Virus record (IMG/VR): IMGVR_UViG_3300037067_002514
Coordinates: 26,044 to 90,043 of that record
DNA from: a virus
Taxonomy: Duplodnaviria > Caudoviricetes
Strand: one strand, 5' to 3'
DNA: 64,000 nt
In this document: positions 10,783 through 46,345 of the stretch, one piece after another
Numbering within the stretch: the stretch's first letter is position 1
Layout: each line of letters opens with the position of its first letter
Position numbers and translations under genes: made by a program
Notes under the pieces: generated by a model
Told to the model about the DNA's origin: nothing
Database searches by the model: none
The model's input: the letters and a program-made list of their open reading frames with translations, nothing else

Positions 10783-11469
10783 TTATGCATGTGACCCAGA
10801 ATACCTTATATAATCACATAATGGTTTTAAATCTAAAATATATCCAAGATCAATACTCTTTAATCTAATTAGATTAAATCCACTTTCTTTTATAGTTGAA
10901 TCAATCCTACTATCCCTATCAGCAACCTCTGGTTTTTCATGATAATACCTACCATCAGCATAAATAACCAGATTAAGGCTGGGGATAAAGGCATCTGGAA
11001 TTGTATAACTAAACTGTTTCTGCTTTATGTATTCAAAACCATGTAACTCAAGAAATTGATATAATTGTCTTTCTAAACAAGTATATTTACCACTATTAAA
11101 ATGTTTAGCCATTGATTCTATTCTTTTTTCTTTTTCTCCTATAGACTGTATTCTACCAATATTATGATTAGTCCCGCCTTTATTAACATGCCCTGGAATA
11201 AAGTTCCTATATCTATAATGTGTATCTGGGTTCATTATAAACCCACCACAACCACATTTACAAGGTGTTTGTACAGAATAGAATGGTTCTCTAATCTTTA
11301 CGTGGGTATGATAGCATTTACTAGAACAGTATTTTTCAGCTCTTCTTGGTTTATTATATGTTGAATAGAATTCTTTACCACAATGAATACACACTCTTTT
11401 ATTCATATCTATCCTCAGTAATAGATTCTCAGATATAGTTAAAGATGGGGAATGAGTCTGAGTTCTCAC
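10783..11469 (-). mobile_element. Free-standing homing-endonuclease-like gene (Zn-finger/NUMOD-like N-terminus + DUF559/Vsr-like PD-(D/E)XK domain); probable start MNKRVC at 11406
   Basis: CIHCGKEF...YCSSKC, CKCGCG, LERQLYQFL...IPDAFIPSLNLVIYADGRYYH...RDSRID...GFNLIRL. Confidence 0.7.
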
Positions 11470-12797: not shown

Positions 12798-13283
12798 CTA
12801 AACCGCACCTGTAGAGTATGTAATAAATGATATACTTGATCTCCAGTACTTCTTCTTCTGATATGTATTAAAATTATAAGCTTGTTTCATTATCCTATCC
12901 TGTGGAGATACATACTCTATTATTCTTAGATCAGCCCCTAAAGGGCTTTTACCCGTATCCTTATTATACCCATTAGAGTAATCCCTGATGGGTATTGCTA
13001 AATCTAAACCATTATACACTAATTCAGATATATCATCCCTTTGTGTATCAGTTAATCCGAAAACATCTATAGACCAATTCTTTTTAAACCAACTAGCACC
13101 TAATTCACCACTACCATCTGATACATAGTTTAATTCTATAGATACACAAGGTATTATCAACGATTCATTCTCTATATCATTATAAGGATAACTATCCAAT
13201 ATTCTTGATACTTTTCCATTCAGTATACCCTTTATATAAAAGTAAATAGATAAATCCTCATTCCTAAACTTTCCACTTGTCAT
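12798..13283 (-). CDS. Tail terminator/completion protein
   Basis: 161 aa directly upstream of the tube gene; WSIDVFG...RDDISELV motif typical of terminators. Confidence 0.55.
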   Translation of the reverse strand: MTSGKFRNEDLSIYFYIKGILNGKVSRILDSYPYNDIENESLIIPCVSIELNYVSDGSGELGASWFKKNWSIDVFGLTDTQRDDISELVYNGLDLAIPIRDYSNGYNKDTGKSPLGADLRIIEYVSPQDRIMKQAYNFNTYQKKKYWRSSISFITYSTGAV

Positions 13284-13284
13284 A

Positions 13285-13617
13285 TTACCTCATTAGTGCT
13301 ATAGCCACTATGGTAGCTACTAGGCTTGATACACATATGCCTGTTACTGCCCAGAATATACTCCATACGAAGTCTTTGATTTTCTTTAATTTTTCATTCT
13401 GTTCACATACAAGGCTCTTTAATTCTTCTTTAATTAAATCCCCAGACTTTAATATCTCTGTTTTTACCTCAGACCTGAACCCATTATAAAACTTAGCTAA
13501 TATCTTATCAACTGTACTTTCTATTCTATCTAATTCTTCCTTTTCTATATCTTGGTTTCCTGCAATTATTATTAGCATTTCTGCTAATTTGTAGTATGGA
13601 TTTTCTCTGTCAGTCAT
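13285..13617 (-). CDS. Coiled-coil protein with C-terminal transmembrane helix
   Basis: Hydrophobic C-terminus FVWSIFWAVTGICVSSLVATIVAIALMR. Confidence 0.55.
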   Translation of the reverse strand: MTDRENPYYKLAEMLIIIAGNQDIEKEELDRIESTVDKILAKFYNGFRSEVKTEILKSGDLIKEELKSLVCEQNEKLKKIKDFVWSIFWAVTGICVSSLVATIVAIALMR

Positions 13618-13625
13618 AACTTATC

Positions 13626-14012
13626 CTAGATCAGTATTGATAGAAATTTTGCGTCTTTTTTAACTGGATTTATACTTCTCTTAATTCCTCCCCTTATCCT
13701 CATATTATCCCCAGCAACAAGCTTATTTTCTGTACCATCAGTACATACTATCAATTCACCAGATAATACAGTTAAATACTCTTCTTTATCCCTTATATAT
13801 TCACCACTACTCTCTAGTGTTGATTTAGCTTCACAATAGGTTATTACCCAGGATGGGTCACTTGATACTAGCTTTTGGCAATCCCAACCGCCTACTTTAT
13901 ATATCCCATAAGGCACTCTGTCTGTTCCCCTAGATATATACTTATCTAGTCTATCCATAATATCAACGCTTTGCTGAACCATAATACCTCTAAAACCTAG
14001 GAATTCTACCAA
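13626..14012 (-). CDS. Cupin-fold protein (probable start MVQQSV at 13982)
   Basis: EEYLTVLSGELIV...LVAGDNMRIRGG cupin-like pattern. Confidence 0.55.
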   Translation of the reverse strand: MVEFLGFRGIMVQQSVDIMDRLDKYISRGTDRVPYGIYKVGGWDCQKLVSSDPSWVITYCEAKSTLESSGEYIRDKEEYLTVLSGELIVCTDGTENKLVAGDNMRIRGGIKRSINPVKKDAKFLSILI

Positions 14013-14856
14013 AAAACTTTCTTACTACACTTCCTTGTGATGTAACAAACCCATAACCCTGTAAACCTATTTTAGTGTTAACTGTATTTATAATAAATAC
14101 TTCTTTTCCAGATTTAGATATAAAGGTATGTCCACGATATTTAGTTTTATTATACTCTATTGTAGTAAAGTTATCCCTTAATATAGTACTTCCAGCATTA
14201 ATCTTTGCTACCATTTGACTTATACTAGTAAAACATTTATTATAAGCACTATGCATTTCTCTAGTATAGTTATCCTTAAAGTTATTTAATATCTTAAATC
14301 CGTGATTTTCAGGATAAGCCCCCATTCCTATATTTCCATTTTCTATTATAACCCAAAATGGGGCTATACCCATTAATTCCATCATATCTAGACGACTATT
14401 AACAGTATCAGCATATTTTGTGCTTTCACCTAGGTACCATGAGTTATATAATTTCTTCCAACCATCTAAGGTACCCCTAAGAGGATAGGCCTCATACTGT
14501 ATTTCTTGTAACTCTTTCCATCCACCAAGTATATCTGTGTTAATAAACATTGCTTGTACTACCCCAGAATGATTATAATAAACACCAACATGGTGAGGTC
14601 TAGACAGTGCGTCTACTAGGACTGATTTGTACCTTGGAAAGTTCTTAAACTCCCTTATAGAGTCCATAGCACTAATAAATTCATCCTGTATTTGCTTATT
14701 AAGCTCTTTAGCTGTATTTAATACAACAGAATCTACAATAGCTTTAGAATCTAAATACAATGTTGGATACATTAAGTTGTTAAATTCCGTTACCCCAAGG
14801 GAAAGAAGTATACCTTGTGGGCTAAAATTACCAATATCATGGAAGAACTCTTCCAT
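13990..14856 (-). CDS. Putative neck/tail-completion virion protein
   Basis: 288 aa in the head-tail joining region; position-based only. Confidence 0.35.
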   Translation of the reverse strand: MEEFFHDIGNFSPQGILLSLGVTEFNNLMYPTLYLDSKAIVDSVVLNTAKELNKQIQDEFISAMDSIREFKNFPRYKSVLVDALSRPHHVGVYYNHSGVVQAMFINTDILGGWKELQEIQYEAYPLRGTLDGWKKLYNSWYLGESTKYADTVNSRLDMMELMGIAPFWVIIENGNIGMGAYPENHGFKILNNFKDNYTREMHSAYNKCFTSISQMVAKINAGSTILRDNFTTIEYNKTKYRGHTFISKSGKEVFIINTVNTKIGLQGYGFVTSQGSVVRKFFGRIPRF

Positions 14857-15074
14857 TAGGTACTAGCACCCTCTATTTCAATACCAGCTAAAACTAGCAT
14901 AGCTCTAGCAAAATTATTGTAGTTGTCTAAAATAACCTTTCTAACCCTTATGTATGATTCCTTATCTTTAACTATCTCCTCTAGTTCATTAAGAGTTATA
15001 GCGCAATACCTTGCTTTCTTCTTATCTACTAACTTTACTATCTCTAGAGGTGAAAGTGCCTCAAACTTATCCAT
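14856..15074 (-). CDS. Hypothetical protein
   Basis: 72 aa, translationally coupled to its neighbours. Confidence 0.5.
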   Translation of the reverse strand: MDKFEALSPLEIVKLVDKKKARYCAITLNELEEIVKDKESYIRVRKVILDNYNNFARAMLVLAGIEIEGAST

Positions 15075-15075
15075 A

Positions 15076-16641
15076 CTACTCCTTACTACCCTCTTTAGCT
15101 ACTATTCTTAACCTATCAACATTAGGTATGCCCTTTTTGGTTATTCTTTGAGGGTATAGTATTCTATCATCTACGTGTATTTCTTTTATTATATCTAGTT
15201 GTTCCTCTGTCAAGTCATCGTTTGATATTGTTATTATACAGTCACCAGCTAATGTGCTTCCAGCAATTCCATGTTCTAAAATATCACCAGATAACCATCT
15301 TACATGAGATTTTATAGTTACTGTAGAATTACTAGAAGGAAGGTAATAAAGACCACTACAGTTATTAACTCCAAACAAATTTGCAGTATATGTATGACTT
15401 CCTTCTACCTCAATGTTATATACCTTTAATGTCCTACTTGTACTACTAACTGCCTTAACAACCATCATATAGTATCCATTGTATATACCAGAACCCCGTG
15501 AATATGTACTGTTAATCCTATACCCTACATGGTAAGACTTTAAATGATGTATACCCTTAGCATCTGTTCTGCTCTCACTAGAAAATATATATGGTTTATA
15601 ACCACATCTTACTAATAGATCAAAAAGTTGGTATGATAATATTTTTGATACTGTAGTAAATGTATATTCATTTCCATCTTTATGACCATCACCATCTACT
15701 AGAGCCTTTACTAGAACATCATTAAAGTCAGTATTAATAAATTCTTTAGGTATAATCTTATTTTCTGCTAAATTCCCACATTTTTTTAATAATAGGCATA
15801 ATTTACTTGAGTGTACCTCTAAACATATACTGTTCTCTGTTCTACTAGTTAGTCTTGAATTTGCGTTAAATAACTCTTTACATATCTTAGATATTCTATC
15901 TGCTACATCCTTTTCATCCTTGTTTAAAGCAAACTGTACTGTTCTTGGATATTCATCATTACTAACACAACCCTCAGCAATAAACCACCCAATAAGATAA
16001 ACTAAATCTTCTGTTATGGCATAAGAATATTCTTTTTCGTGGTATTTATATGGGTTACTAAAGCATATTTCACTATATTTTTTTACATCACATATAGGGT
16101 ATAACAGGGTATCTCCAACTTCTATGTCTATTGCTGCTTTATCAACTATTTTAAACCTACCATCTTTAGGTTGTCTTGAGTAATAACACCCCCTTCTTGG
16201 GGTACAGGTTGGTAAACACTGTATATTTCTGCAACTATGGGGGTATTTATACTTCTCTAGGACTTTAAAAGTATGATTACCCGTACACTCTACACCCTCT
16301 ATATTTTTGTAGGTCTCTATAGATACCATAATACCAGTATAATCTCTACTAAATGTATTAATAACTTTATACTTATTACCAGAACTAGAGTAAACAGTGT
16401 CACCAAGGATTATATCTTGTATATTTTTAAACCCTTCAGTAGTATTTACTAGTGTATCTTCCTTGAAACAGACTTCGCAGAAACTATCTAGACTTGTTTG
16501 ATTAACTTCATCAAATAAACCACCAGAAGAGCATACTGGACATACATTACCAGAACCTACTAGGATAAAGTCTACATTTCTTCCTATAGCCTCTCTTATC
16601 TCTTCCTTTATAGTTTTTGTTTCTGGAAATGTTATTGACAT
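15076..16641 (-). CDS. Putative head-closure (stopper-like) protein with 2x CxxC, interrupted by an intein (151 aa after splicing)
   Basis: Exteins join as ...CPVC...SFCEV/CSGLYY...HVRWLSG...GDCIITI...IHVDDRILY; neck-module position. Confidence 0.6.
   Translation of the reverse strand: MSITFPETKTIKEEIREAIGRNVDFILVGSGNVCPVCSSGGLFDEVNQTSLDSFCEVCFKEDTLVNTTEGFKNIQDIILGDTVYSSSGNKYKVINTFSRDYTGIMVSIETYKNIEGVECTGNHTFKVLEKYKYPHSCRNIQCLPTCTPRRGCYYSRQPKDGRFKIVDKAAIDIEVGDTLLYPICDVKKYSEICFSNPYKYHEKEYSYAITEDLVYLIGWFIAEGCVSNDEYPRTVQFALNKDEKDVADRISKICKELFNANSRLTSRTENSICLEVHSSKLCLLLKKCGNLAENKIIPKEFINTDFNDVLVKALVDGDGHKDGNEYTFTTVSKILSYQLFDLLVRCGYKPYIFSSESRTDAKGIHHLKSYHVGYRINSTYSRGSGIYNGYYMMVVKAVSSTSRTLKVYNIEVEGSHTYTANLFGVNNCSGLYYLPSSNSTVTIKSHVRWLSGDILEHGIAGSTLAGDCIITISNDDLTEEQLDIIKEIHVDDRILYPQRITKKGIPNVDRLRIVAKEGSKE
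15361..16470 (-). mobile_element. Intein with LAGLIDADG endonuclease (370 aa) in the putative head-closure protein
   Basis: Starts CFKEDTLV; block B CTGNHTF; LIGWFIAEG and LVDGDG; ends YNIEVEGSHTYTANLFGVNN/C (penultimate Asn, not His). Confidence 0.92.
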
Positions 16642-18971
16642 ACCTTCTTACTCACCCTGTTAGAATTTACCTCTTCTAGAATAATCTTATCAAATTTACC
16701 AGCCAGGTACTTCCAACTAAATCTTTCTTGCTGTACTAGATCATATGCCTTTTTACCATATTCCTTTACCTTTTCTCTATTGACATACAAGTCATCTAGT
16801 ATTCTAGCCATATCCTCTGTATCCACTACAGCACCTTCAGTATTAATCCCACCAGTTAGAACTTCCCAATCCTTTATCTTAATCAGAGGGGCAGTTCCTG
16901 TCCATATTTCCTTTAATGCACTATTATCTGCTACCACTTGTGTAATTCCACAAGCTGCACTTTCACACGGTGAAAGACCCCATCCCTCTCCAGCAGAAGC
17001 CATCACATTTACATCAGCTATGTTATATATCTTGCATAACCCATCTAAAGGTAAGCCTTTATCTGGTCTTATTATGTTCTGATCAGTATACGTTACTCTA
17101 TCTTGTATACCCCATCTTTTAGCTAGATCAACAAGATTCCACCCTAAATCATTTAGACAGTTGTGAACACATAGGAACTCTGTGTTATATGTATGAGTTG
17201 GGTCTGTCTCAAGATTATATACTATTCCAGTATATTTTTCTACACTAGTACTAATAACAGGAACATAGAAGTAGTTATCATCACTCCAGATACGAGAAAA
17301 ACTCTTTGACTTAAACCCTATATTTTCCTCTAGTATAAAGGACATTTCTCTCTTCTGTAACCCACCAGCATAAAGGGTGTACCCGTAAAATCCATCTGTG
17401 TCAGGACAAGTTTTTCTTAAGGATGCTACTATTCCTAATCTTAAAAGAACATACTTTAATTGGTAAATAAGGTTAATTGATACTGAATAATAACCAAAGC
17501 TCAAACCAGTAAAACACCCATCACCATCATATAATCCCTTAACAAAAGACCTTAATAATGAAGTATCACTATAAAGTATAAAATCTGGTATAAATTTATT
17601 ATGTGCCCCTGCCCCAAAAGTTGTTCTAAACCACTCAGAGATACTCTTTGAACAAAAAACTAAATTACCACCATTTTTACTAGTACTATACCATTTTCCT
17701 TTCTTACTAAAGTACTTATTCATAGCATAGTCAATAAAAGATATTAAATCCCTTTCCTTTATATTGAGGCTAAAAGAAATATTATTCCCACTGGAACTAC
17801 CCTCTGCAACATACAACCCGAATAACCTTGATAAATCAGCGTTAAGTGAGAGACTATTAAATTTTATGTCAGTAGATATGGGTTCTACCTTTGGCTTAGG
17901 TATTGCTACAAAGTCTGTGTCTGATAGATCAGAAGCATTTATAAACTCTGTTTTATACCTCTCATAAAACCTTTTACCACAATTTGTAGTAATAATCCCA
18001 GATTTAAGAGTTTTAAACCTTGCCTTACAAGCTTTGGAACAAATAGTCTTTTTACCATTATAGCATTTCTTACCTTTTACACCTAATACTGGATGTTCTG
18101 GGGTAACTAAAATATCTTCTGAACCTTGACATTTTAGCCTTATTACGTCACCTGTGTACGGTCTACTAATAGTATCAATAACATTACTAGCATTACCACT
18201 GGAGTCTAAAACTTTATCCCCTATAATAACATCCTGTATGCTCTTGGGAATCCCATTAGATGTTACCACTTTAGTACCTGGAATAAAACAAGTATGTAGG
18301 TATACCTGTATATTGTTCCTATCAGCACTGGGCTTACTATTCAACCATGTAGCACAACCTTTTAAAAACAAGTCAAGTCTCTTTCTAGGCTGGTTCCTGT
18401 TTAAGTTCATCACTACAAATGCTTCACTAGGTATGCCATTTATAAATTTCCTAGCATCTAGCATAGGATAAAAAGAATCAGTATCAACCCCATGACCTAT
18501 AATATCAACCTTATCTACCTCTTGAGTGGCTAGTATTCCATCCCTAGCATAAGTAGTATAAGTAACCATTCTAGTACCAGAATCGTTTATTATCTTAACC
18601 CATTGTGGTGCTACTGGAAGAGCGTCAACTGGTGAGTAAGAGATCACTCTATTTCCCTCTGGAATTTGCTTTACTATTTCAGATACAATCCATAGATCAT
18701 TATTTATAACTATAATATCAGGTTTCTCTTTTGATATGACTTCAGCTACACGGTCTATACCAAATACATTACCCCTTGCTTTAGCTGGGTATATTCTGAA
18801 TATACCTTCATAACAATGAGGGTCTCCTATTTGTTGATTAACACCTAGTACTGATATATCATATCTACCTAAAGAATATAAATTCTCTAGTATAGCTTGA
18901 GAAACTCTTCCGAACCCTGTACTAGCTGCTGGACTATCACCACACCATAATAACTTAATCTTACCTTCCAT
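16632..18971 (-). CDS. GT-B (family 4-like) glycosyltransferase with intein (402 aa spliced)
   Basis: LLWCGDSP..STGFGRV, NRNQPRKRLD, ASAGEGWGLSPCESAACG. Confidence 0.85.
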   Translation of the reverse strand: MEGKIKLLWCGDSPAASTGFGRVSQAILENLYSLGRYDISVLGVNQQIGDPHCYEGIFRIYPAKARGNVFGIDRVAEVISKEKPDIIVINNDLWIVSEIVKQIPEGNRVISYSPVDALPVAPQWVKIINDSGTRMVTYTTYARDGILATQEVDKVDIIGHGVDTDSFYPMLDARKFINGIPSEAFVVMNLNRNQPRKRLDLFLKGCATWLNSKPSADRNNIQVYLHTCFIPGTKVVTSNGIPKSIQDVIIGDKVLDSSGNASNVIDTISRPYTGDVIRLKCQGSEDILVTPEHPVLGVKGKKCYNGKKTICSKACKARFKTLKSGIITTNCGKRFYERYKTEFINASDLSDTDFVAIPKPKVEPISTDIKFNSLSLNADLSRLFGLYVAEGSSSGNNISFSLNIKERDLISFIDYAMNKYFSKKGKWYSTSKNGGNLVFCSKSISEWFRTTFGAGAHNKFIPDFILYSDTSLLRSFVKGLYDGDGCFTGLSFGYYSVSINLIYQLKYVLLRLGIVASLRKTCPDTDGFYGYTLYAGGLQKREMSFILEENIGFKSKSFSRIWSDDNYFYVPVISTSVEKYTGIVYNLETDPTHTYNTEFLCVHNCLNDLGWNLVDLAKRWGIQDRVTYTDQNIIRPDKGLPLDGLCKIYNIADVNVMASAGEGWGLSPCESAACGITQVVADNSALKEIWTGTAPLIKIKDWEVLTGGINTEGAVVDTEDMARILDDLYVNREKVKEYGKKAYDLVQQERFSWKYLAGKFDKIILEEVNSNRVSKKVCQ
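17160..18290 (-). mobile_element. Intein with LAGLIDADG endonuclease (377 aa) in glycosyltransferase
   Basis: YLHT/CFIPGTKV...VTPEHPV...LFGLYVAEG...LYDGDG...YNLETDPTHTYNTEFLCVHN/C. Confidence 0.93.
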
Positions 18972-18980
18972 TCCTCTCCT

Positions 18981-19661
18981 TTACCAGACTTTAATCTTGT
19001 TTTTGACAATTCTAGGTATAGTAAATACCTCGTCAGCACTATTAACAACTATTATGGCATACCCTATAGTTCCATGAAAGTCCATTGGTACAGTTGAAAA
19101 GCAACTCTTAAACTTACTAGGGTTACTATAGTTATATTGATATCTTAGTGGGGTATGTAAATGACCAGAATAAAATGCCCTTACTTTATCAGTAAGAAAC
19201 TCATTAGCAACACCAGATGGGAATACCTCAAATGGGTGATGGGAAAATACTATATGATAGTCCTGACCAGATAAGCTTTTCATAAGCCAATCATACTGTT
19301 CTGTATCATTTTTTAAAGAACTATACCACCCTTCTGCGTGTCTATGACCTATATATGATGTATCAAGAAAATCAAGGGTATAACCATTAATACTTAAATT
19401 TTTAAACCTTGAACCAAAGTCATCAACACTATATTTACCAAAATCACCAGGCATAACAATAACCCTGTGATTTATTTTACTAATTGATTCCTTTGCAATG
19501 TTAAATGATTCTTCTGAATCATCATGGGTAATGTCACCAGTTATAACAACTACATCAACCTTTTCATGATTAATATTGTCTATCATTGGTTCCAGTATAT
19601 TCTCAAAAGGTCTAATATGTAAATCTGATAACTGTAGTGCTACAAGTTTTAATTTATCCAT
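18981..19661 (-). CDS. Calcineurin-like metallophosphoesterase (GNH motif altered to GDF)
   Basis: QLSDLH, TGDITHD, MPGDFG, FSHHP, SGHLH. Confidence 0.75.
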   Translation of the reverse strand: MDKLKLVALQLSDLHIRPFENILEPMIDNINHEKVDVVVITGDITHDDSEESFNIAKESISKINHRVIVMPGDFGKYSVDDFGSRFKNLSINGYTLDFLDTSYIGHRHAEGWYSSLKNDTEQYDWLMKSLSGQDYHIVFSHHPFEVFPSGVANEFLTDKVRAFYSGHLHTPLRYQYNYSNPSKFKSCFSTVPMDFHGTIGYAIIVVNSADEVFTIPRIVKNKIKVW

Positions 19662-29339: not shown

Positions 29340-31352
29340 TTATAGCCCCCCTTTATTAAATACTTCCCAATTTTCAATTAACCACTTATCAGTCTCTAGT
29401 ATTCCCTCTTCTAGGCTAACTGTAGAATTCCAACCTAATTCACTATTGGCTAAACTAGAATCCATATTGTAGTCTAAGTCCTTACCTCTTCTATCTGGTG
29501 AATTAGTTACTAAATTATTAAAATTATATCCAGTTAAGTAACAAGTAAATTCAACTAATTCCTTTACACTAAGGTATTCAGAACCAGAGAAGTGATATAC
29601 TTTGTCATGCTTACCAGTATTAACCAAGTCTATAATTCCTTTTGCCACATCTTTACGATGAACAAAAGATCTCCTAGTTTCACCATTACCATCTAATCTA
29701 AGTATACCACAATTATGTATTGTTGTCAAAGTTTTTGGGACTATTCTGAATAGTTGTTGGCATGAACCATATATATTAGCAAATCTGGATAGGACATAGG
29801 GGAATCTATATTGTTTGTACATAACTTCTAAGTACATATCAAATGCTGCTTTAGAGTTGTGACTAATAATATCTTGTTCTATAATATAATTATGATTATC
29901 CGCAACTTCTATGTCAATTACATCACCACAATAATTACTTAATAAAGGTTTATCTATTGGTTGCCAAACTATATTACCTTCATTTGTTCTTTGAGATTTA
30001 ATGATAGGACATGGTTTATTATAAAGCTTCAAACTTGGTATAGTATCAAAAAATAATCCTACAGATTTAGAGTCTGTTATTATTACCTTATCACCATTTA
30101 TATATGAATAAATACCCAAACGAGATAGTAAATACTTTATCTGTCTAATTAATACAGGAGAATGAGACCCAAATTCTAGTTTATTATTACAATAGCAACC
30201 ATCTGCATCAAAATATCCCCCTAAAAATTCCTTAATATTATCTATAGAATTATTAATAATTTCTTGTGGTAGTACTTTATTAACCGCTTTCTTATCTAAT
30301 CCTAGACTCTGTATTTGTCTAACTAAAGAAATATCCCCTTTGTAAGCATACCAACAATTTTTACTTTTGTGTTTTAATAAATACCCACCACCTATTAAAT
30401 TTATATAATATTCAACAAAATCTTTTTTTTCGTCTGCTAATGTTATGGTTTGTTGTCTAGTAGTAGTTATGTTTTTACTTCCCTTTTTAATATAACCATC
30501 ACCTACAAAATAACCTAAAAATCTGTTAAAACTAGCATTGAAATAATTAGTAATATCTCCATAATTTTCTCTGGTTGTAGCTACCCAATCTCCCTTCTGC
30601 AACTCCTTAGCAGTAACCCAAGTGGTGTTCAATGCCCCAATATCTTGGCGATAATCTAATTTATTGTTGTATCTTTTAGGTCTTTTGACTAAAAATTTAT
30701 GGTTGGGGGTACACCTTATTTTTCTATTTCTTATGTTGACTTCTAATAATTCTTTACAATTATACTTAAAAACATTGGTTACATTTTTTGATTCTACCTT
30801 ATTAGTAAGAGTATTTATACTTTGAACTAAGTCTCCAATAACAATATCTTTTATTGCTTTTTCTGTTCCATTTGACAGTAAAACTAAAGTATCTGGATGT
30901 AGACATGCAGCATAAGGAGTAGTAGGGTTATATATTTTTGACTCTTTGAACAGTTTAGGTTTGTTTCCATAAACTTCTGGAGTTGATGAGTGAATAAACT
31001 TCTGTAAATAAGTTTGAGTATTGAGATATTGTACTATTCTAACTAATGCTGAACAATTAACATCAAAGTAATCACTAGGATAATCCCAACTATCATCAAC
31101 TATACCTAATGCTATAAAGTTTAGAACAATAGTGGGTCTTATTCTATCTATAAGGTCTTTAATAGCCTCAAAATCTTCCACTATGTCATAGTGGTACTCT
31201 TTGAAGTTATCTAACTTAGGGTTAGCACTATAGGGTTTAAACATATTATGATTTACTGTTCTCCCTATACCTACAACTTGATATCCTTCGGTTAAAAGGG
31301 CATCAACAGCTATACCACCCATATAAGAGCTACTACCTAATACTAATATCAT
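29340..31352 (-). CDS. NDP-sugar 4,6-dehydratase-like extended SDR with intein (320 aa spliced)
   Basis: HSSTPEVYG; spliced catalytic motif TPYAA/SK; SRFANIYG; RRSFVH. Confidence 0.85.
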   Translation of the reverse strand: MILVLGSSSYMGGIAVDALLTEGYQVVGIGRTVNHNMFKPYSANPKLDNFKEYHYDIVEDFEAIKDLIDRIRPTIVLNFIALGIVDDSWDYPSDYFDVNCSALVRIVQYLNTQTYLQKFIHSSTPEVYGNKPKLFKESKIYNPTTPYAACLHPDTLVLLSNGTEKAIKDIVIGDLVQSINTLTNKVESKNVTNVFKYNCKELLEVNIRNRKIRCTPNHKFLVKRPKRYNNKLDYRQDIGALNTTWVTAKELQKGDWVATTRENYGDITNYFNASFNRFLGYFVGDGYIKKGSKNITTTRQQTITLADEKKDFVEYYINLIGGGYLLKHKSKNCWYAYKGDISLVRQIQSLGLDKKAVNKVLPQEIINNSIDNIKEFLGGYFDADGCYCNNKLEFGSHSPVLIRQIKYLLSRLGIYSYINGDKVIITDSKSVGLFFDTIPSLKLYNKPCPIIKSQRTNEGNIVWQPIDKPLLSNYCGDVIDIEVADNHNYIIEQDIISHNSKAAFDMYLEVMYKQYRFPYVLSRFANIYGSCQQLFRIVPKTLTTIHNCGILRLDGNGETRRSFVHRKDVAKGIIDLVNTGKHDKVYHFSGSEYLSVKELVEFTCYLTGYNFNNLVTNSPDRRGKDLDYNMDSSLANSELGWNSTVSLEEGILETDKWLIENWEVFNKGGL
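29856..30905 (-). mobile_element. Intein with LAGLIDADG endonuclease (350 aa) in the SDR YxxxK motif
   Basis: PYAA/CLHPDTLV...CTPNHKF...FLGYFVGDG...FLGGYFDADG...DIEVADNHNYIIEQDIISHN/S. Confidence 0.93.
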
Positions 31353-39579: not shown

Positions 39580-42108
39580 TTACTTTACTTCCTCTTTTGC
39601 CTTTGGTGTTGTTTCCTTATTCTGTAAATTTGGGGATGAATAAGGAACCACTGGAGATTCATCAACACCATACTTTACATACATTTCCTTCTCTTCTGCC
39701 TTCCTCTCTAGTTCTGATTGTAAATCAAGACCTTGCATCTCCAGTCTAGTAGTTCTAGAAAGAGAACCCTCTAAGTATAGTTTCTCACCTATTGTATTCA
39801 AATCAAGAAGCTTATATAGCTTCATAGGTTCAAAAGTAGGTTCAGCTACACCTTTAAAGTCATTCTTTTCTTGTATCTCCTTAAACAAATCAACTGCCCA
39901 CTGTACAAATTTATCTCTTATTGCATCCATAGTAGCAATAGGACTAAATGTAGCTAGATCAGAACCTCCTGTTACATTAGATTTAGATGTTTCACCTGTA
40001 ATTAAAGTTCTAGGGAATCCAAATCCAGCTATAATATCCTCATCTACTGACTTGTACTTTTCCTGATTCAACATAGCCTCTGTATTAGGGTATATCCACT
40101 CTATAGTAAGAGTGTGGTTAGCAAATAGTTGGTATACCCTCTCACTTATACCATCAGGTGTCCAGAAGTTCATTTGAGATTTAATTGAGTCAAAATCACT
40201 ATTATCTGTTACTGGAAAATCCTTATCACCTAGCTTTATCATCTGGATAGCAGCAGTAACCCTAGAGGCTATACTATAATCCATCTTTCTAAGATTTCTT
40301 TTATGAGATAGTGCTTCCAATGCATTAGTCATATATGGAATAGGGTATGGGTCTTCTGGTAATGTTCTAGCCAATATAGGTCTTATATCCTCTAATGGAA
40401 TAGATATAGTAATGCCCTTAGAATCTCTTATTCTTTTTACAAAACTAGGATAATTCTTCTCTAGTAATGACCTAGCCTCAATATCCTCTGGTGATAGGCT
40501 TGATACTGGTTCTTTAATTATACGTAGTATTTCTGGGGATACCTTAACTAAGTATAATCTATTATTTGGTATTGGGGTAAACTTTACACTAATAGATGCT
40601 GGGTCTCTAAACCAGAAATTACTAGGAAGGATATATCTAGTTCTTGAATCAAGATTATGTGATAGGTCACTACCTTTAACTCTAACCCACTCATAATGTG
40701 GTATTACTAACCCAGAAAGAAGGTATTCAAGACAAGCGTTTCTAAAGAACTCCTTTAGTGTGGGATTTAATGCCCCGTAAACACTAATCTCTTTATCAGT
40801 ACACTTATTTCTCTTAACATTAATAGCTGAAATGCAACAATCGACCATCTTGTTTAGGATAGTATTTCCACACCAACAAGGTTTTCCATTTCTTCTAACA
40901 TACATTATATGATTAGGTACTTCTACGCAGTGAATAGTTCCATCATAATCAATTACTGATACATCTTTAGGACTAAGCCTTGACCCACTCGTTCTTTTTA
41001 AGAAAGATAGCGTATACCCATCATAGTTAGCTGTTATAAATCTATTCTGACTCTTAAAGTAAGAAGGTACACCAGCTTTATGGGATAAACGATATACTGC
41101 ACCATTATACCTTGATTTAATAGCTAACTCCATTAAATCATCCCTTAATTTTACTGAACTAGTCCAACAAACCATACCGTTATTCTTAGACTTCTCACTA
41201 TGGTTTCCATCCCCTTTTCTGTAGTAATCCAAGAGAATCCTTATCTGTCTAGTAGATAAATTCTTATATAATTCAGGAATAAATTTATTATGAGCACCAG
41301 TAATCTCCCTTAGATACTCATGTATATGCCTGTTTGAAAATTGTATATAATTTTTGTTCTTTAAGTTATGAATATTGATATACCAGGATTCAAGGATACC
41401 TTTTATTTCATTTAAAGTATCGTGGTTTGAATTAGTTAGGTTAATACTGTGTTGACCTTCTACCTTACTAACACATCCCTCTGCAACCCAAAATCCAAAA
41501 AATTTTAACCAATCATCCATCTTAACGTGTATAGTTTTATAGTCAAAAAATTCCTCTTCTTTACCTAACCATATTGCATCTCTCTTTATCTTTATTTGTT
41601 TACCAATAGTACTCTCAGCAGATGCTAGTTCATAAGACCAATCTTCAATAGGTTTATTATAGTTCTTATCATGTGTTCTAAAAGACACAAACATATTATG
41701 GTTTGGGGTAACAACAAGATTTATACCACTTTTTTTATTATAAAAGGTAACCATTTTACCTTTATAAGCCTTATTTACAAAACCTGTTGGTTTTTGATAC
41801 TCTATAGTGCCTGTCTCTTTATCTAGTGTCATTATTTCATCATCACTAGTTACTTCCTTAAAAAACTTCCACCCATTTCTAGTTAATACCTCTGTCTCAG
41901 AGTCATAGCACCCACTTATACTATCGAACTTATAGAAGAACCTGCACATCTTTACAATATCGTGGTAATTCCTTTTACTAATGTTAAGGTCATCCTTATA
42001 GTTATACATATATGCACTCTGACCTGGGCTATCCATTATGTTAGAACGCCACTCAGCTTGTGCTAGGTTACTATATTTGTTATCCATTTTACCTCTTATT
42101 CCAACCAC
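39580..42108 (-). CDS. Portal protein with intein (~493 aa spliced)
   Basis: Directly after the terminase; CRFFYKFD.., IPYMTNALEAL.HKRNLRKMDYSIA, IIAGFGFPRTLITG. Confidence 0.8.
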   Translation of the reverse strand: MVGIRGKMDNKYSNLAQAEWRSNIMDSPGQSAYMYNYKDDLNISKRNYHDIVKMCRFFYKFDSISGCYDSETEVLTRNGWKFFKEVTSDDEIMTLDKETGTIEYQKPTGFVNKAYKGKMVTFYNKKSGINLVVTPNHNMFVSFRTHDKNYNKPIEDWSYELASAESTIGKQIKIKRDAIWLGKEEEFFDYKTIHVKMDDWLKFFGFWVAEGCVSKVEGQHSINLTNSNHDTLNEIKGILESWYINIHNLKNKNYIQFSNRHIHEYLREITGAHNKFIPELYKNLSTRQIRILLDYYRKGDGNHSEKSKNNGMVCWTSSVKLRDDLMELAIKSRYNGAVYRLSHKAGVPSYFKSQNRFITANYDGYTLSFLKRTSGSRLSPKDVSVIDYDGTIHCVEVPNHIMYVRRNGKPCWCGNTILNKMVDCCISAINVKRNKCTDKEISVYGALNPTLKEFFRNACLEYLLSGLVIPHYEWVRVKGSDLSHNLDSRTRYILPSNFWFRDPASISVKFTPIPNNRLYLVKVSPEILRIIKEPVSSLSPEDIEARSLLEKNYPSFVKRIRDSKGITISIPLEDIRPILARTLPEDPYPIPYMTNALEALSHKRNLRKMDYSIASRVTAAIQMIKLGDKDFPVTDNSDFDSIKSQMNFWTPDGISERVYQLFANHTLTIEWIYPNTEAMLNQEKYKSVDEDIIAGFGFPRTLITGETSKSNVTGGSDLATFSPIATMDAIRDKFVQWAVDLFKEIQEKNDFKGVAEPTFEPMKLYKLLDLNTIGEKLYLEGSLSRTTRLEMQGLDLQSELERKAEEKEMYVKYGVDESPVVPYSSPNLQNKETTPKAKEEVK
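40864..41910 (-). mobile_element. Intein with LAGLIDADG endonuclease (349 aa) in the portal
   Basis: SISG/CYDSETEVLTRNGW...VTPNHNM...FGFWVAEG...YRKGDG...CVEVPNHIMYVRRNGKPCWCGN/T. Confidence 0.93.
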
Positions 42109-45100
42109 CAGAAGCTAGGTCACTGTACTTACCTGTTATACCTTTTGGTTGTGTTGGTGAATACATTTTATTATATATACCATATACCCAAGTCAATAAT
42201 GATGCAAGGATATGATCATCCCCTTTCTGACCACCATTAGGGGAATATACAAAATACTTTGGAACACCTAGCATATCTCTTGTAAAACCAACCCTCTCTA
42301 ACTCAGATATTACATCATCATCTTGTCTTGATAAAGCTATTATCTGATCATTTTGAGTCCACTTTTGTAGAGTTTGTATAGTGAACTTTCTTACTCTATC
42401 CTTAATTTCAGTACCATCTTCCTCATACCCAGTTACCACGTTACCTTGAAAATCAACTGGTACTAGTCTATCTAGGTTTGCTTTATCCTTAAATTGGGGT
42501 AAATCTGCTAGTATTTGAAGTAAGGCTAATCCGCTTGAACCATTATCAACGGTTATCATATTAAACCTATATATTGAATCAAGGAATCCAATTATATTAG
42601 CTTGTATAGGGTACTTTATTCTCCTTAGTTCAAACCTAGCTAACTCTCTCCATATACCCTTAGATAGATATAAAATAGTAAATATAGATGGGTCATTAGA
42701 GAAACCACAATCACAATTTCCACACCACACTGGTTTTCCACACCTTCTTACATAAAGAATATGATTAGGAACCTCTGCACAATACACCATATCATCATAC
42801 GTACTAGTAGAAACATGTTGTACCCCTCTGGTATTTAAAACTGGGTTCAAGTACTTAGTTTGAAAGTTAATGTGGTAGAAAACCCTTCTTGTAAAACCAT
42901 TAGGTGCTTTTCTCCCTATATCATCTGTAACCTTTATTATTCCAGAATACCCAAGCCTAAAAACTAGTTCTTGGAAATCATCAGCTAACTGTTTAGAGGA
43001 AGTACCATAATGGTTATAACCCTTTGTACCATCCCCTAACATTAGAGCTTTAAATAGGTATAGTAAGTACTTTTTATCTAAATTAAGAAATTCTCTAGGG
43101 ATGTACTTTAAGTAAGATTTAGTCATACTAAATCCACCTAGATAATTACTTAATTGAGTATCATAGAGGGTAAAACCACCATCATTACTAGTATAGTTAA
43201 ACCCATTATCCTTAAGAAAGTTATCTATAACCACAAAATTTTCATAATTTGTTTTTTTACTTTGACTAATACAAACTCTTCCATAACCAGTAAACCCCTC
43301 TGATATAAAATATCCAAGAAGTTCCATAAATACTTCAGTTTTTAATTCTAGGGGTTTTTCCTTACCTTTGTATACCCTAATACCACCTCGTTTACCTATA
43401 ACCTCTTTAGTATACCCTGGAATACTTATAGTATCCCTTGTCTCCCCTTTATAATTACAAGTATTCATGAATTTCATTGAATCATTAGATACATCCTCAA
43501 TATTTACTAGTTCAAATTTATTATTGATGTAACCACCACGTTTCTTATGAGAAACATATACTTTATGATTAGGTGTTACTTTTAGATCAATAAACCTACT
43601 ACCAATATTATACATATCACCAGTATATTTATAGGATATAAGCTTTCTTGGAAATTGATACTCTATATTCCTATCAACCCCAAGAGTAGCTAACTTATCT
43701 ATATAAGTTACATCTTTAAATAACTTCCAACCACTATTTGTTAATACCTCTGTATCTTTATCATAACACGCCAAACAAATTAAGTCATGAGTCAATGGTT
43801 CAGGACAATCTAACAAGGAACTAAAATTACCTTGATTTTGTTCTAGACTTATATTGTTAATACTGCTTCTTGCTACTGGATAGTCCTCTATTAGCATCAA
43901 TTTTCTATCAAATACACTAAAGGCTGGACTACCATGTTCCCCACAATTATGTACTATGTATGATGGTAAACAATATGTTCCACTTTCAGTAGTTAAGTTA
44001 TATACCTTACCTGAAAAAGGTAATTTATTTAATTCTTTAACTCTAACTGTATAAAGACCATCATTGATATACCTACGTTTACTGTCCTCTGTAAGACTAA
44101 GTACATAAGAATCTCTAGTAGTATTTTTACTTTTATTATCTAATATTTGTACTAGTCTTCCACCAGGATTTTTAGATATAGTAGAGAACACCCCCAATCT
44201 AAATAGAAGCAATCTTATGCTATTTATTAAATTTATAGAAACAGATACACAAGATTTCTCATTATATCTATCCCCTTTTCTCACTGTTCCATCACCCTCA
44301 AAATAAGCATCCACCATAGGTTTAATTTTATCAATATTAAGGTTTAGTATAATTGGATTAATACTTTTACCCCAAGAGTACTTCCCACACAAGGATACAA
44401 AAAGTCTACATAATAAAGTACTATACACTTTAACATAAAGGCTATTACCTCTACCTTTACTAATAGTTGCAGTTAAGTTAAATTTATCCTTTAAAATTCT
44501 AGATAGATTATTGGCAACATTGGTTTCATCACCACTCAAACAAAACTGTAAACACTGTTCTCTTATAGATGAACCTTCTGCTAAATACCAACCTAGTAGC
44601 GTCATAAAATCATAATCCAAATCTACTTTGTTTTGTAGGTCTCCTTTTATAGTTTTATTATTAATATACTTTCCACTTTTAATTCTATTACTAGATACCC
44701 TAACTCTATCACCAACTAGTATTACATCACTAACTAAATCACTTATGTTTATGCTACTAATATTATTAGAATAGCTGGATAATGGATAATGTAACCTGTG
44801 TTCTTTAGTTATTTCTTTAGCCTTAATAAACTCCCTGTTATAATTAATATACTCTTGTTTATTACATTTATTACACCCATACCAGCATTTCCAATCAAAC
44901 TTTCCACAGGATGTACACTTACTTGTTTTAGTGGATAGAATTGGGTGTTCTGGGGTAGAATAATAAGTTCTATAGTCACCAAAAGTTTTTATCCCTACTA
45001 AATCACCAGTATATTCCCTGTTCTGTATTTCAGTTACTTTAGTATACAAACCATTAGCAGAAAGAACATAATCACCTACTTTTATACTAGTTATATCTTT

Positions 45101-46345
45101 TATACCTTCACTAGTAACAATAGGTGTACCCTCTGGAAAGCATACTAGGTGCACAAAATCATCAGAATCTTCACCACCATATTGCTTAAGGTCATTTTTA
45201 TACTGTTCTTTTGTATAACGTGGACTCATTAAACGAGATAGATTATGCCTAGAAAACTTTTCATCTTGTTGATCACATACGAATAGTACGTTTCTTTCTC
45301 TTAAACCATTAGGTACACCTGAAACCCAAACACCAAAGTTATCTTCCCACCCATTTAATGTTTGAAGCAGGGAGTTCCATGCTAACCAATTTATTAATTG
45401 TGATTCATCGACATAAATTTGGGGAACGTGCATACCCACGACATTACTATCTCCAGCTTGACCTACAATTCTACAACGTATCATAGAACCATTTAATAAT
45501 TTTATTTCATGGCTTGATACATTAATAGAATTCTTATCAATAAAATGTTTTAAAAGTGGATGTTTTCTAAATAATTGAATAAATCTAAGAAATATAGGGT
45601 CAAGTTGTGCACGATTAGGTGTAACTAATAAAACTTCATTTGCACTACCAGTCTTGAACTTATTTGATATTACATCATGTAATATACGTAATTGTAACAC
45701 CTCAGTATTATGTACTAATATATTATCCTGTATGTAATTATGATATTTTTCTACATATATAGAATATGTTTGTTCTATAATAGTAGGTACTATATTTTTT
45801 ACTCTAACCCATCTTAAGTCTGACTCTACTGGTTTATAGCCAAATTCACTTAAATTAGTAGGAATAGCTACATAGTCACCTACTTTTAAATTCTTTAATT
45901 CTACCCAACCATTAATAGTAAAGAAAGGATGATTATCTGTACATTCAGTTTCTCTTCCAGATTCAAGTGAGATTTTATATACTTGTTTTATTTCATCAGG
46001 AACACATCTAGCCTTAGATATTACAGGTTTAAGGTCTTCATTATAAGAGATAGCCTCAAACTCTTTATTGGATAATAGTCCTATCCTTACTTGAGAACCA
46101 TCACCTAAAGTTATAAGGGTATTATACGGACTACACTTCCCTGAAGCACGACCTGTACATACATCAATATAATGTGACTCATCAAGAATCATCCTCTTTT
46201 GGTAATTATCTAGGTGAAACTGTTTTGTCTCACCTTCTTCAAATACCTCAGTGGTGTTCTTTATGAATTCAGCAAATAGGTACTTGTCTTCTATTATTTC
46301 AAGTACATCTAAATCTACACTTTTAAGTTCTTGCTTTTGTTTCAT
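42089..46345 (-). CDS. Terminase large subunit with three inteins (525 aa spliced)
   Basis: Walker A TGRASGK/T, Walker B IYVDESQ, VSGVPNG coupling motif, nuclease LA/CDCGFSNDPS and KGDDHILAS. Confidence 0.92.
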   Translation of the reverse strand: MKQKQELKSVDLDVLEIIEDKYLFAEFIKNTTEVFEEGETKQFHLDNYQKRMILDESHYIDVCTGRASGKCSPYNTLITLGDGSQVRIGLLSNKEFEAISYNEDLKPVISKARCVPDEIKQVYKISLESGRETECTDNHPFFTINGWVELKNLKVGDYVAIPTNLSEFGYKPVESDLRWVRVKNIVPTIIEQTYSIYVEKYHNYIQDNILVHNTEVLQLRILHDVISNKFKTGSANEVLLVTPNRAQLDPIFLRFIQLFRKHPLLKHFIDKNSINVSSHEIKLLNGSMIRCRIVGQAGDSNVVGMHVPQIYVDESQLINWLAWNSLLQTLNGWEDNFGVWVSGVPNGLRERNVLFVCDQQDEKFSRHNLSRLMSPRYTKEQYKNDLKQYGGEDSDDFVHLVCFPEGTPIVTSEGIKDITSIKVGDYVLSANGLYTKVTEIQNREYTGDLVGIKTFGDYRTYYSTPEHPILSTKTSKCTSCGKFDWKCWYGCNKCNKQEYINYNREFIKAKEITKEHRLHYPLSSYSNNISSINISDLVSDVILVGDRVRVSSNRIKSGKYINNKTIKGDLQNKVDLDYDFMTLLGWYLAEGSSIREQCLQFCLSGDETNVANNLSRILKDKFNLTATISKGRGNSLYVKVYSTLLCRLFVSLCGKYSWGKSINPIILNLNIDKIKPMVDAYFEGDGTVRKGDRYNEKSCVSVSINLINSIRLLLFRLGVFSTISKNPGGRLVQILDNKSKNTTRDSYVLSLTEDSKRRYINDGLYTVRVKELNKLPFSGKVYNLTTESGTYCLPSYIVHNCGEHGSPAFSVFDRKLMLIEDYPVARSSINNISLEQNQGNFSSLLDCPEPLTHDLICLACYDKDTEVLTNSGWKLFKDVTYIDKLATLGVDRNIEYQFPRKLISYKYTGDMYNIGSRFIDLKVTPNHKVYVSHKKRGGYINNKFELVNIEDVSNDSMKFMNTCNYKGETRDTISIPGYTKEVIGKRGGIRVYKGKEKPLELKTEVFMELLGYFISEGFTGYGRVCISQSKKTNYENFVVIDNFLKDNGFNYTSNDGGFTLYDTQLSNYLGGFSMTKSYLKYIPREFLNLDKKYLLYLFKALMLGDGTKGYNHYGTSSKQLADDFQELVFRLGYSGIIKVTDDIGRKAPNGFTRRVFYHINFQTKYLNPVLNTRGVQHVSTSTYDDMVYCAEVPNHILYVRRCGKPVWCGNCDCGFSNDPSIFTILYLSKGIWRELARFELRRIKYPIQANIIGFLDSIYRFNMITVDNGSSGLALLQILADLPQFKDKANLDRLVPVDFQGNVVTGYEEDGTEIKDRVRKFTIQTLQKWTQNDQIIALSRQDDDVISELERVGFTRDMLGVPKYFVYSPNGGQKGDDHILASLLTWVYGIYNKMYSPTQPKGITGKYSDLASGGWNKR
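42716..43768 (-). mobile_element. TerL intein c, LAGLIDADG (351 aa), at the nuclease active-site strand
   Basis: ICLA/CYDKDTEVLTNSGW...LLGYFISEG...LMLGDG...CAEVPNHILYVRRCGKPVWCGN/C. Confidence 0.93.
43946..45142 (-). mobile_element. TerL intein b, LAGLIDADG (399 aa)
   Basis: VHLV/CFPEGTPI...STPEHPI...LLGWYLAEG...YFEGDG...YNLTTESGTYCLPSYIVHN/C. Confidence 0.93.
45707..46135 (-). mobile_element. TerL intein a, mini-intein (143 aa) in Walker A
   Basis: ASGK/CSPYNTLI...CTDNHPF...YSIYVEKYHNYIQDNILVHN/T; no endonuclease motifs. Confidence 0.93.

Follow-up and report, generated by a model that had tools for sequence, protein, structure and literature searches.

The stretch of DNA analysed here, hereafter the window, covers 64,000 nucleotides of an uncultured tailed phage and is the terminal 64 kb of a virus record of 90,043 bp (G000), which is 56% complete according to CheckV. 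On the minus strand of the window, the open reading frame (ORF) at 15076-16641 encodes an intein-bearing precursor, and the explanation that we consider likely is that a selfish class-1 intein resides at a new site, in the stopper gene of a large phage that is saturated with inteins. As part of this same explanation, the extein would be a six-stranded-barrel protein of the phage neck carrying an extra C4 zinc ribbon. The novelty lies in the extein family and in the position of the class-1 LAGLIDADG intein at a metal-ligand Cys, the type of intein itself being known.

The frame of the precursor gene is intact over 521 codons plus the stop, and its start, an ATG, lies in an overlap of 10 bases with the end of the GT4 gene located upstream. 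The N-extein (aa 1-57, 16471-16641; all coordinates of the precursor refer to the minus strand) contains three putative zinc-ribbon ligands, C34 and C37 (16531-16542) and C55, and shows 52% identity to residues 1-57 of the intein-free homologue P0135. At the upstream splice junction (16468-16479) the codons read TGC GAA GTC / TGT TTC, more specifically C55-E-V followed by C58, which are the extein Cys at position -3, or Cys(-3), and Cys1 of the intein, respectively. The 370-aa intein (aa 58-427, 15361-16470) ends with GTT AAT AAC, immediately followed by the TGT AGT GGT of the C-extein (aa 428-521, 15079-15360), which thus begins with the +1 Cys, the putative fourth ligand of the zinc ribbon, then a Ser and a Gly that is invariant in the family. 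The spliced product, composed of the 57-aa N-extein and the 94-aa C-extein, would be 151 aa long. The original prediction, made from the letters and the ORF translations, had described a 370-aa LAGLIDADG intein ending in Asn-Asn, a 151-aa spliced protein, a C34-P-V-C37 motif, and a C55-E-V interrupted by Cys58 of the intein, and all of these statements are correct. The junction reading also bears out that splicing is needed for the second CxxC to be formed from extein residues, and that a Cys(-3)-x-x-Cys1 motif (C55-E-V-C58) is present in the precursor.

Several lines of evidence identify the insert as a class-1 intein with a LAGLIDADG homing endonuclease, for which both splicing and homing are predicted. 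In Pfam, the insert matches LAGLIDADG_3 (E 4.9e-8, 33.6 bits versus a cut-off of 22.5 bits), while the matches to Intein_splicing, PT-HINT, and Hint_2 lie under their cut-offs. We aligned the stopper intein with ten other inteins of the same virus record and with the intein of an orthologue, P0002, and observe that Cys1, the His of block B, the Gly of the first LAGLIDADG motif, a Lys, and the Asp-Gly of the second motif are invariant in all 12 sequences. In the stopper intein, block B reads T-G-N-H (a T-x-x-H motif; intein positions 63-66, 16273-16284), the first LAGLIDADG motif (15970-15996) ends with Glu-Gly, the second (15685-15702) contains Asp-Gly-Asp-Gly, and the C-terminal Asn is directly followed by the +1 Cys (V-N-N / C-S-G). 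An AlphaFold2 (AF2) model built on the 12-intein alignment reached a predicted local distance difference test score (pLDDT) of 82.7 and a predicted template modelling score (pTM) of 0.83, with two stretches of low confidence. Foldseek matched this model to solved homing-endonuclease inteins with E-values from 4e-20 to 4e-12, including TliVMA (7qsu; E 4e-20, template modelling score 0.69), PI-SceI (1vde), and PI-PfuI (1dq3). The stopper intein is thus predicted to share the HINT plus double-LAGLIDADG architecture of these three inteins, and it has the Cys1, T-x-x-H, terminal Asn, and +1 Cys, but it differs from them in sequence, as no solved chain was detectable when phmmer was run with the intein against the PDB sequences.

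Other differences from the solved inteins occur at the C-terminal splicing blocks and after block B. The residues reported as usual in PMC4031507 are a penultimate His and an Asp in block F, whereas blocks F and G of the stopper intein (15361-15423) contain an Asn in place of this Asp and end with Asn-Asn. The penultimate His, which is common but not obligatory, is also replaced by Asn in P0002 and in P0008, a fragment with the same junction. The Asn-Asn end is therefore kept in all three intein alleles even if the two full inteins are only 45% identical, which argues that this end is functional. The third difference is an extra Cys-rich insert after block B (16186-16239, 4 Cys in 18 aa), which coincides with one of the two low-confidence stretches of the model. 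Comparable Cys-rich inserts occur in the inteins of P0002, of GT4, and in the second intein of the large terminase, and they may be zinc-binding elements for DNA recognition.

The position of the insertion was established by comparison with homologues. An exhaustive HMMER search with the C-extein retrieved 23 proteins, among which intein-free proteins of about 150 aa, such as P0003 and P0135, read C-x-x-C-S-G without interruption, while P0002 is a 505-aa orthologue with an intein at the same site. P0135 (150 aa), which belongs to a related phage, L084, aligns to residues 1-58 (52% identity) and 428-521 (47% identity) of the precursor and to nothing in between, and both Cys58 and Cys428 of the precursor fall on the single Cys58 of P0135. 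Intein-free homologues, which the original prediction had proposed to look for, are therefore at hand, with an uninterrupted site and with one of them in a syntenic relative. A profile search with the extein family extended it to 171 matches; among the 120 matches listed, Pfam domains are absent and most proteins are unnamed or hypothetical. We then counted the conserved residues in the 129 intein-free members of 130-170 aa. All four Cys are found in 126 of them and none of the four in a single one (P0016, 148 aa), each of the last two Cys is found in 128, and the following Gly in all 129. The family thus shows two conserved CxxC knuckles, the motif of a C4 zinc ribbon, and its most conserved part is C-P-[V/T]-C-S-G, with the intein located directly before the second Cys of this motif. 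The insertion is immediately before the last Cys of the C4 zinc ribbon, as assigned from the motif.

The column corresponding to Cys(-3) is one of these conserved positions (Cys in 128/129 intein-free members), and is consequently not tied to the presence of the intein. Any intein that lands before the last Cys inherits a Cys at -3, and we therefore interpret the Cys(-3) and the split CxxC as a consequence of the landing site, with no evidence in the sequences for an evolved switch.

In a tree of the C-extein region (131 sequences, 94 columns, internal branches poorly resolved), built without sequences lacking a recognisable junction motif and without the multi-domain proteins P0005, P0006, and P0009-P0011, the three intein alleles fall in one subclade of nine members (support 1.0), where they are interspersed with six intein-free alleles. 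The C-extein of the window is 47-48% identical to those of the intein-free P0003, P0137, and P0135, and 45% identical to that of the intein-bearing P0002. Such a sporadic presence (3/9 in the subclade), as read from the sequences, is the pattern expected of a homing element. A search for longer, intein-bearing alleles returned P0002 only, which is weak evidence for the lack of others. No short homologue of the C-extein was retrieved by a word-index search, and no match by tblastn against 50,697 phage records. Scans of viral contigs with the C-extein, P0003, and P0002 gave a sole match of 20 residues on a high-GC contig (L001), which was ruled out as a chance match by the ORFs of this contig. 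Among the family members set aside from the tree, P0005 (322 aa) is lengthened in its C-terminal half by some 170 inserted aa, with a weak match to DUF4082 (E 0.0045) and with ends that are not intein-like. In P0006, P0009, P0010, and P0011 (785-2508 aa), matches to residues 24-77 of the C-extein recur as many as 12 times per protein, which may reflect a repeated beta unit or a compositional artefact.

The identity of the host protein was derived from its predicted fold and from its gene position. As a stand-in for the spliced 151-aa product, we used AF2 on a 13-sequence alignment to model P0003, the nearest homologue without an intein (48% identity over the C-extein) (pLDDT 78.8, pTM 0.64). 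When this model was compared to the PDB with Foldseek, the top 31 matches were almost all neck entries, with the NF5 neck (E 1.5e-4), SaPI1, phiCD508, the T1 stopper, the SPP1 connector chain 7z4w_1, and the lambda neck as top matches. The VIA-align search, which is independent of Foldseek and covered 48,161 representatives, gave eight matches at Z >= 8. Neck chains of phages or of SaPI1 account for seven of them, and the eighth is SF1141, a structural-genomics protein from Shigella with no function in its title. These matches include Pam3 (Z 9.1, root-mean-square deviation (rmsd) 7.8, 110 aligned residues), Chi (Z 9.0, rmsd 5.4, 108 aligned), the R4C stopper (Z 8.7, rmsd 4.1, 96 of 102 residues), and SaPI1 (Z 8.6), and the top 25 are mostly connector chains. 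When the Foldseek matches were re-aligned, the lambda neck chains reached Z 9.1-9.4 and SPP1 7z4w_1 reached Z 8.4. In BFVD, 27 matches had an E-value of at most 1e-3, and the named ones are head-tail adaptors, head closure knobs, or head-tail joining proteins.

The gene order is consistent with this fold. In the window, a capsid-like gene is followed, after other genes, by GT4, the stopper, and genes for proteins of 72 and 288 aa, then further on by a gene for a 391-aa protein and finally by the tape measure gene. The related phage L084, which comes from a complete 138.6-kb IMG/VR genome (G005) with terminal repeats, shows the same order (capsid-like, 165 aa, phosphoesterase, GT4, stopper, 74 aa, 288 aa, then further on 161 aa, and later 389 aa, 254 aa, and tape measure), with GT4 and stopper genes that are both intein-free. 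The 288-aa neighbours of the two phages are 37% identical and the GT4 proteins 63-64% identical, with a gap exactly at the intein of the window GT4. The stopper gene thus lies between capsid-like and tape-measure genes in two related phages. PHROGs named no neck protein among the neighbour genes of L084.

Given the uniform structural matches, the coverage of whole targets, and the gene position in two phages, we accept the assignment to the stoppers or head-tail joining proteins, and the host protein is very probably a neck protein of the SPP1 gp16 / lambda gpFII kind. The virion neck protein of the original prediction is accordingly backed by predicted fold and gene position. The extein family is predicted to share its fold with SPP1 gp16 (7z4w chain 1), the lambda neck chain (8k37_M / 8xow_f, presumably gpFII given its length), and the R4C and T1 stoppers (Z 8.1-9.4), and it shares with them the gene position between capsid and tail genes. 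It differs from the solved stoppers by its size, about 150 aa compared to 100-125 aa, and by the lack of a sequence-family match. From the aligned ranges we infer that the 35-45 extra residues correspond to the zinc-ribbon segment. The four stoppers named here are not known to carry a C4 zinc ribbon.

We propose that a selfish LAGLIDADG homing-endonuclease intein invaded the stopper gene immediately before the Cys that forms the last zinc ligand. The precursor would splice itself, constitutively, in a reducing cytoplasm, with Cys428 acting first as the +1 nucleophile and later as the fourth zinc ligand. Splicing would free the 370-aa endonuclease and restore the zinc ribbon, and only then could the 151-aa protein join the neck, where it would assemble below the adaptor once the DNA is packaged. 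The freed intein, for its part, would cut intein-free alleles in co-infecting relatives.

Several observations weigh against this explanation and are best considered with the alternatives to which they lead. Neither Pfam nor PHROG gave a family for the exteins at E <= 0.001, the matches being zinc-finger noise, and no neck family was matched by the exteins or by any of 14 homologues, for which there was likewise no match at this threshold (the best one, to a PHROG of unknown function, has an E-value of 0.0011), while the ESM Atlas gave only unnamed Uroviricota clusters of 65-93 members. The neck assignment moreover derives from the predicted structure of a homologue, with moderate Z-scores (8-9.4) and a high rmsd for several matches, and in VIA a best Z of 7-8 also occurs for models without true relatives. 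The binding of zinc by the four Cys is likewise deduced from their motif. The extein could be a different small protein of the virion or of its assembly, with a beta barrel and a zinc ribbon, for instance a tail-completion, tube-like, or decoration protein, given that related barrels (Hcp, tail tube, tail knob) are found at Z 5.7-6.6 and that unusual genes (GT4, metallophosphoesterase, cupin) are interspersed in the capsid-tail module. We consider this improbable, since neck or head-tail joining chains that cover almost the entire target make up seven of the eight matches at Z >= 8 and the majority of the top 25, the named BFVD matches agree with them, and the gene lies downstream of the capsid-like gene and upstream of the tail genes in both phages. 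The replacement of both the penultimate His and the block F Asp by Asn makes slow or conditional splicing conceivable and, together with the fact that no solved intein is detectable by sequence, might even indicate a decaying intein that splices poorly or not at all, in which case the gene would be a dead or dying copy, or the stopper would be tolerated with a bulge of 370 aa. This is very improbable in our view. The frame is open over all 521 codons, none of Cys1, T-x-x-H, the terminal Asn, and the +1 Cys is missing, both LAGLIDADG motifs are intact, and the conservation of the Asn-Asn end in diverged alleles argues for constraint. In addition, the penultimate His is missing from 6 of the 13 inteins in the record, among them those of the portal and the terminase, which are essential genes, and titles in the reference list of PMC4031507 state that inteins can splice without it.

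The remaining alternative, in which splicing itself is regulated, arises from the junction geometry, which the original prediction had taken as a gate of head closure. The precursor would be a conditional zymogen, in which a Cys55(-3)-Cys1 disulfide, or a zinc ion held by the three N-extein ligands and Cys1 (or the +1 Cys), delays the maturation of the stopper until the cell becomes reducing or short of zinc, and thereby times the closure of the head. The Cys(-3)-x-x-Cys1 spacing is present here and in the orthologous allele P0002, and the same spacing is known to affect splicing elsewhere: splicing of the Ssp DnaE intein is trapped once a Cys has been engineered at -3 (the "redox trap" of Callahan et al. 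2011, via PMC3922620 and PMC10663303), and in the Pyrococcus abyssi MoaA intein a native Cys(-3)-Cys1 disulfide blocks the first step and controls splicing (PMC3922620, PMC10663303). Regarding metals, zinc is reported to inhibit several inteins (PMC7765530), and reversibly so by binding the catalytic Cys in the Mycobacterium smegmatis DnaBi1 intein (PMC7360933). In the stopper precursor, C-E-V-Cys1 copies the C-E-V-Cys(+1) knuckle of the mature protein and three pre-organised ligands stand beside the nucleophile, which makes a zinc latch chemically plausible. Furthermore, a Cys at -3 is seen in 2 of the 13 inteins of the record. With a Cys frequency of 1.66% in the proteome, the binomial P for two or more is 0.019, a weak hint that the sites are non-random.

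The comparison with these systems nevertheless has limits. The N-extein Cys at -3 and Cys1, with two residues in between, are common to the stopper, MoaA, and the engineered DnaE precursors, but a disulfide is reported for MoaA and a redox trap for DnaE, whereas the stopper junction is known from its sequence. The stopper Cys(-3) is a conserved putative ligand of the zinc ribbon and belongs to a structural protein rather than to an oxygen-labile enzyme, and it is equally present in intein-free alleles, where the zinc ribbon and not the intein explains it. Similarly, the stopper intein shares with DnaBi1 a catalytic Cys that zinc could occupy, but the zinc site of DnaBi1 is reported to lie within the intein, with a measured inhibition (PMC7360933), whereas the three-Cys extein site beside Cys1 is deduced for the stopper. 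A thiol or zinc block would also not be specific to head closure, since all 13 inteins of the record start with Cys1 and 6 of 13 have a +1 Cys, and it would hit DnaB, NrdD, the terminase, and the portal first. The NrdD of the record is of the anaerobic type (PF13597, E 1.5e-60), and the PanB of the phage is closest to metagenome-assembled genomes (MAGs) labelled Dehalococcoidia, Syntrophaceae, and Clostridia, with 60-61% identity for the Dehalococcoidia and Syntrophaceae matches. These lineages are mostly anaerobic, and the host cytoplasm is therefore probably reducing, a condition in which a disulfide is disfavoured. No stopper homologue was found in the Dehalococcoidia and Syntrophaceae MAGs that best match PanB. 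Finally, the sporadic presence of the intein is that of a parasite and not of a fixed regulator. We thus regard the conditional zymogen as unlikely, and slightly less likely still its specific form in which C34, C37, C55, and Cys1 of the intein make a decoy C4 site, or Cys55 and Cys1 a disulfide, that latches the stopper by metal or redox state. The gating of head closure by redox or metal, as originally predicted, accordingly has a low probability, with no sign that the junction geometry was selected, and the constitutively splicing, selfish intein is the explanation that we retain.

The most unusual feature in the surroundings of the stopper gene is the intein density of the record. Intein or LAGLIDADG domains are detected by Pfam in eight of its ORFs, and a reading of the junctions gives 13 inteins in 8 genes, i.e. 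about one per 7 kb in the 90-kb record, several of the boundaries being placed from motifs alone without comparison to intein-free homologues. The large terminase and NrdD contain three inteins each, DnaB two, and the metallophosphoesterase, stopper, GT4, sugar epimerase/dehydratase, and portal one each. Ten are in the window (15361-16470, 17160-18290, 29856-30905, 40864-41910, 42716-43768, 43946-45142, 45707-46135, 48134-49438, 49637-50605, and 50771-51943) and three are upstream of it (G000:C1 4002-4970, 8622-9197, and 9684-10814). The inteins in GT4 (17160-18290) and in the sugar epimerase/dehydratase (29856-30905) are outside the usual hosts, which are nucleic-acid enzymes, and their occurrence in sugar-metabolism enzymes is part of what makes the record unusual. 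By comparison, a group of crAss-like phages whose genomes each hold as many as 3 inteins and 14 introns is described as having an unprecedented density (PMC7886860). The 138.6-kb genome of L084 contains a single LAGLIDADG-bearing ORF.

Within the record, the penultimate residue is His in seven inteins, Gly in four, Ser in one, and Asn in one. The two inteins with a Cys at -3 are that of the stopper and the third terminase intein (42716-43768), which splits C-L-A-C just before an Asp of the nuclease domain and ends with Gly-Asn. The nearest relatives of the stopper intein are the intein of P0002 (45% identity over 372 columns, E 1e-102), the GT4 intein (28%, E 8e-24), and the second terminase intein, and this kinship of inteins from different genes suggests that inteins have spread between sites within this phage lineage. 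Four related inteins (40864-41910, 42716-43768, and 49637-50605 of the window, and G000:C1 4002-4970) end with Gly-Asn and have a Cys in block F, preceded by Trp in two of them. We take this Cys to recall the class-3 "WCT" signature, even if all four still start with Cys1.

Some further differences between the two phages are found around the stopper gene. L084 GT4 has a Ser at the position of the +1 Cys of the window GT4. A free-standing endonuclease gene occurs among the tail genes of both phages, in slightly different places, and is HNH/Vsr-like in the window (10783-11469) and HNH in L084 (12394-12855). The cupin ORF mentioned above lies in the neck-tail block of the window (13626-14012; Cupin_2, 27.1 bits for a cut-off of 27.2), where L084 has only a 75-aa ORF. 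Like GT4 and the metallophosphoesterase, it is one of the genes interspersed in the capsid-tail module. No Rfam family was detected over 13000-19500 of the window, and no tRNA in the window.

Inteins are well documented in phage terminases, portals, and replication enzymes (PMC5050341, PMC4760082, PMC3556154), and according to surveys most inteins are found in nucleic-acid enzymes, terminases, and portals (PMC4760082, PMC5050341). In actinobacteriophages, a 2025 preprint reports them in minor capsid, tape measure, and baseplate wedge proteins (10.1101/2025.01.02.630785). No stopper or head-closure protein is named as an intein host in the available excerpts of PMC5050341, PMC4760082, and 10.1101/2025.01.02.630785, the limited literature searched gave no link between inteins and stopper, head-closure, or neck proteins, and PMC5259590 reports no intein in its phage. 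The stopper intein has in common with those of other phage virion proteins (portal, terminase, minor capsid, tape measure, baseplate wedge) that it is mobile, interrupts a late or virion gene, and is sporadic among alleles. It differs from them in its site, which is a metal-ligand Cys of a non-enzymatic protein.

The catalogue of inteins therefore gains a new host protein and a new site, namely a non-enzymatic neck protein, the stopper, interrupted at a metal-ligand Cys. At the same time, a widespread phage family without a Pfam or PHROG match (171 matches) is defined as a stopper bearing a putative zinc ribbon. With its 13 inteins in 90 kb, the record offers a compact natural collection in which to examine whether inteins also act as switches or are parasites only, and the native C-x-x-Cys1 junction is suited for testing the idea of a redox or zinc trap with natural exteins. 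If such a trap were real, it would represent a natural case of conditional protein splicing that controls the completion of virus particles, in a phage with 13 inteins of the same thiol chemistry.

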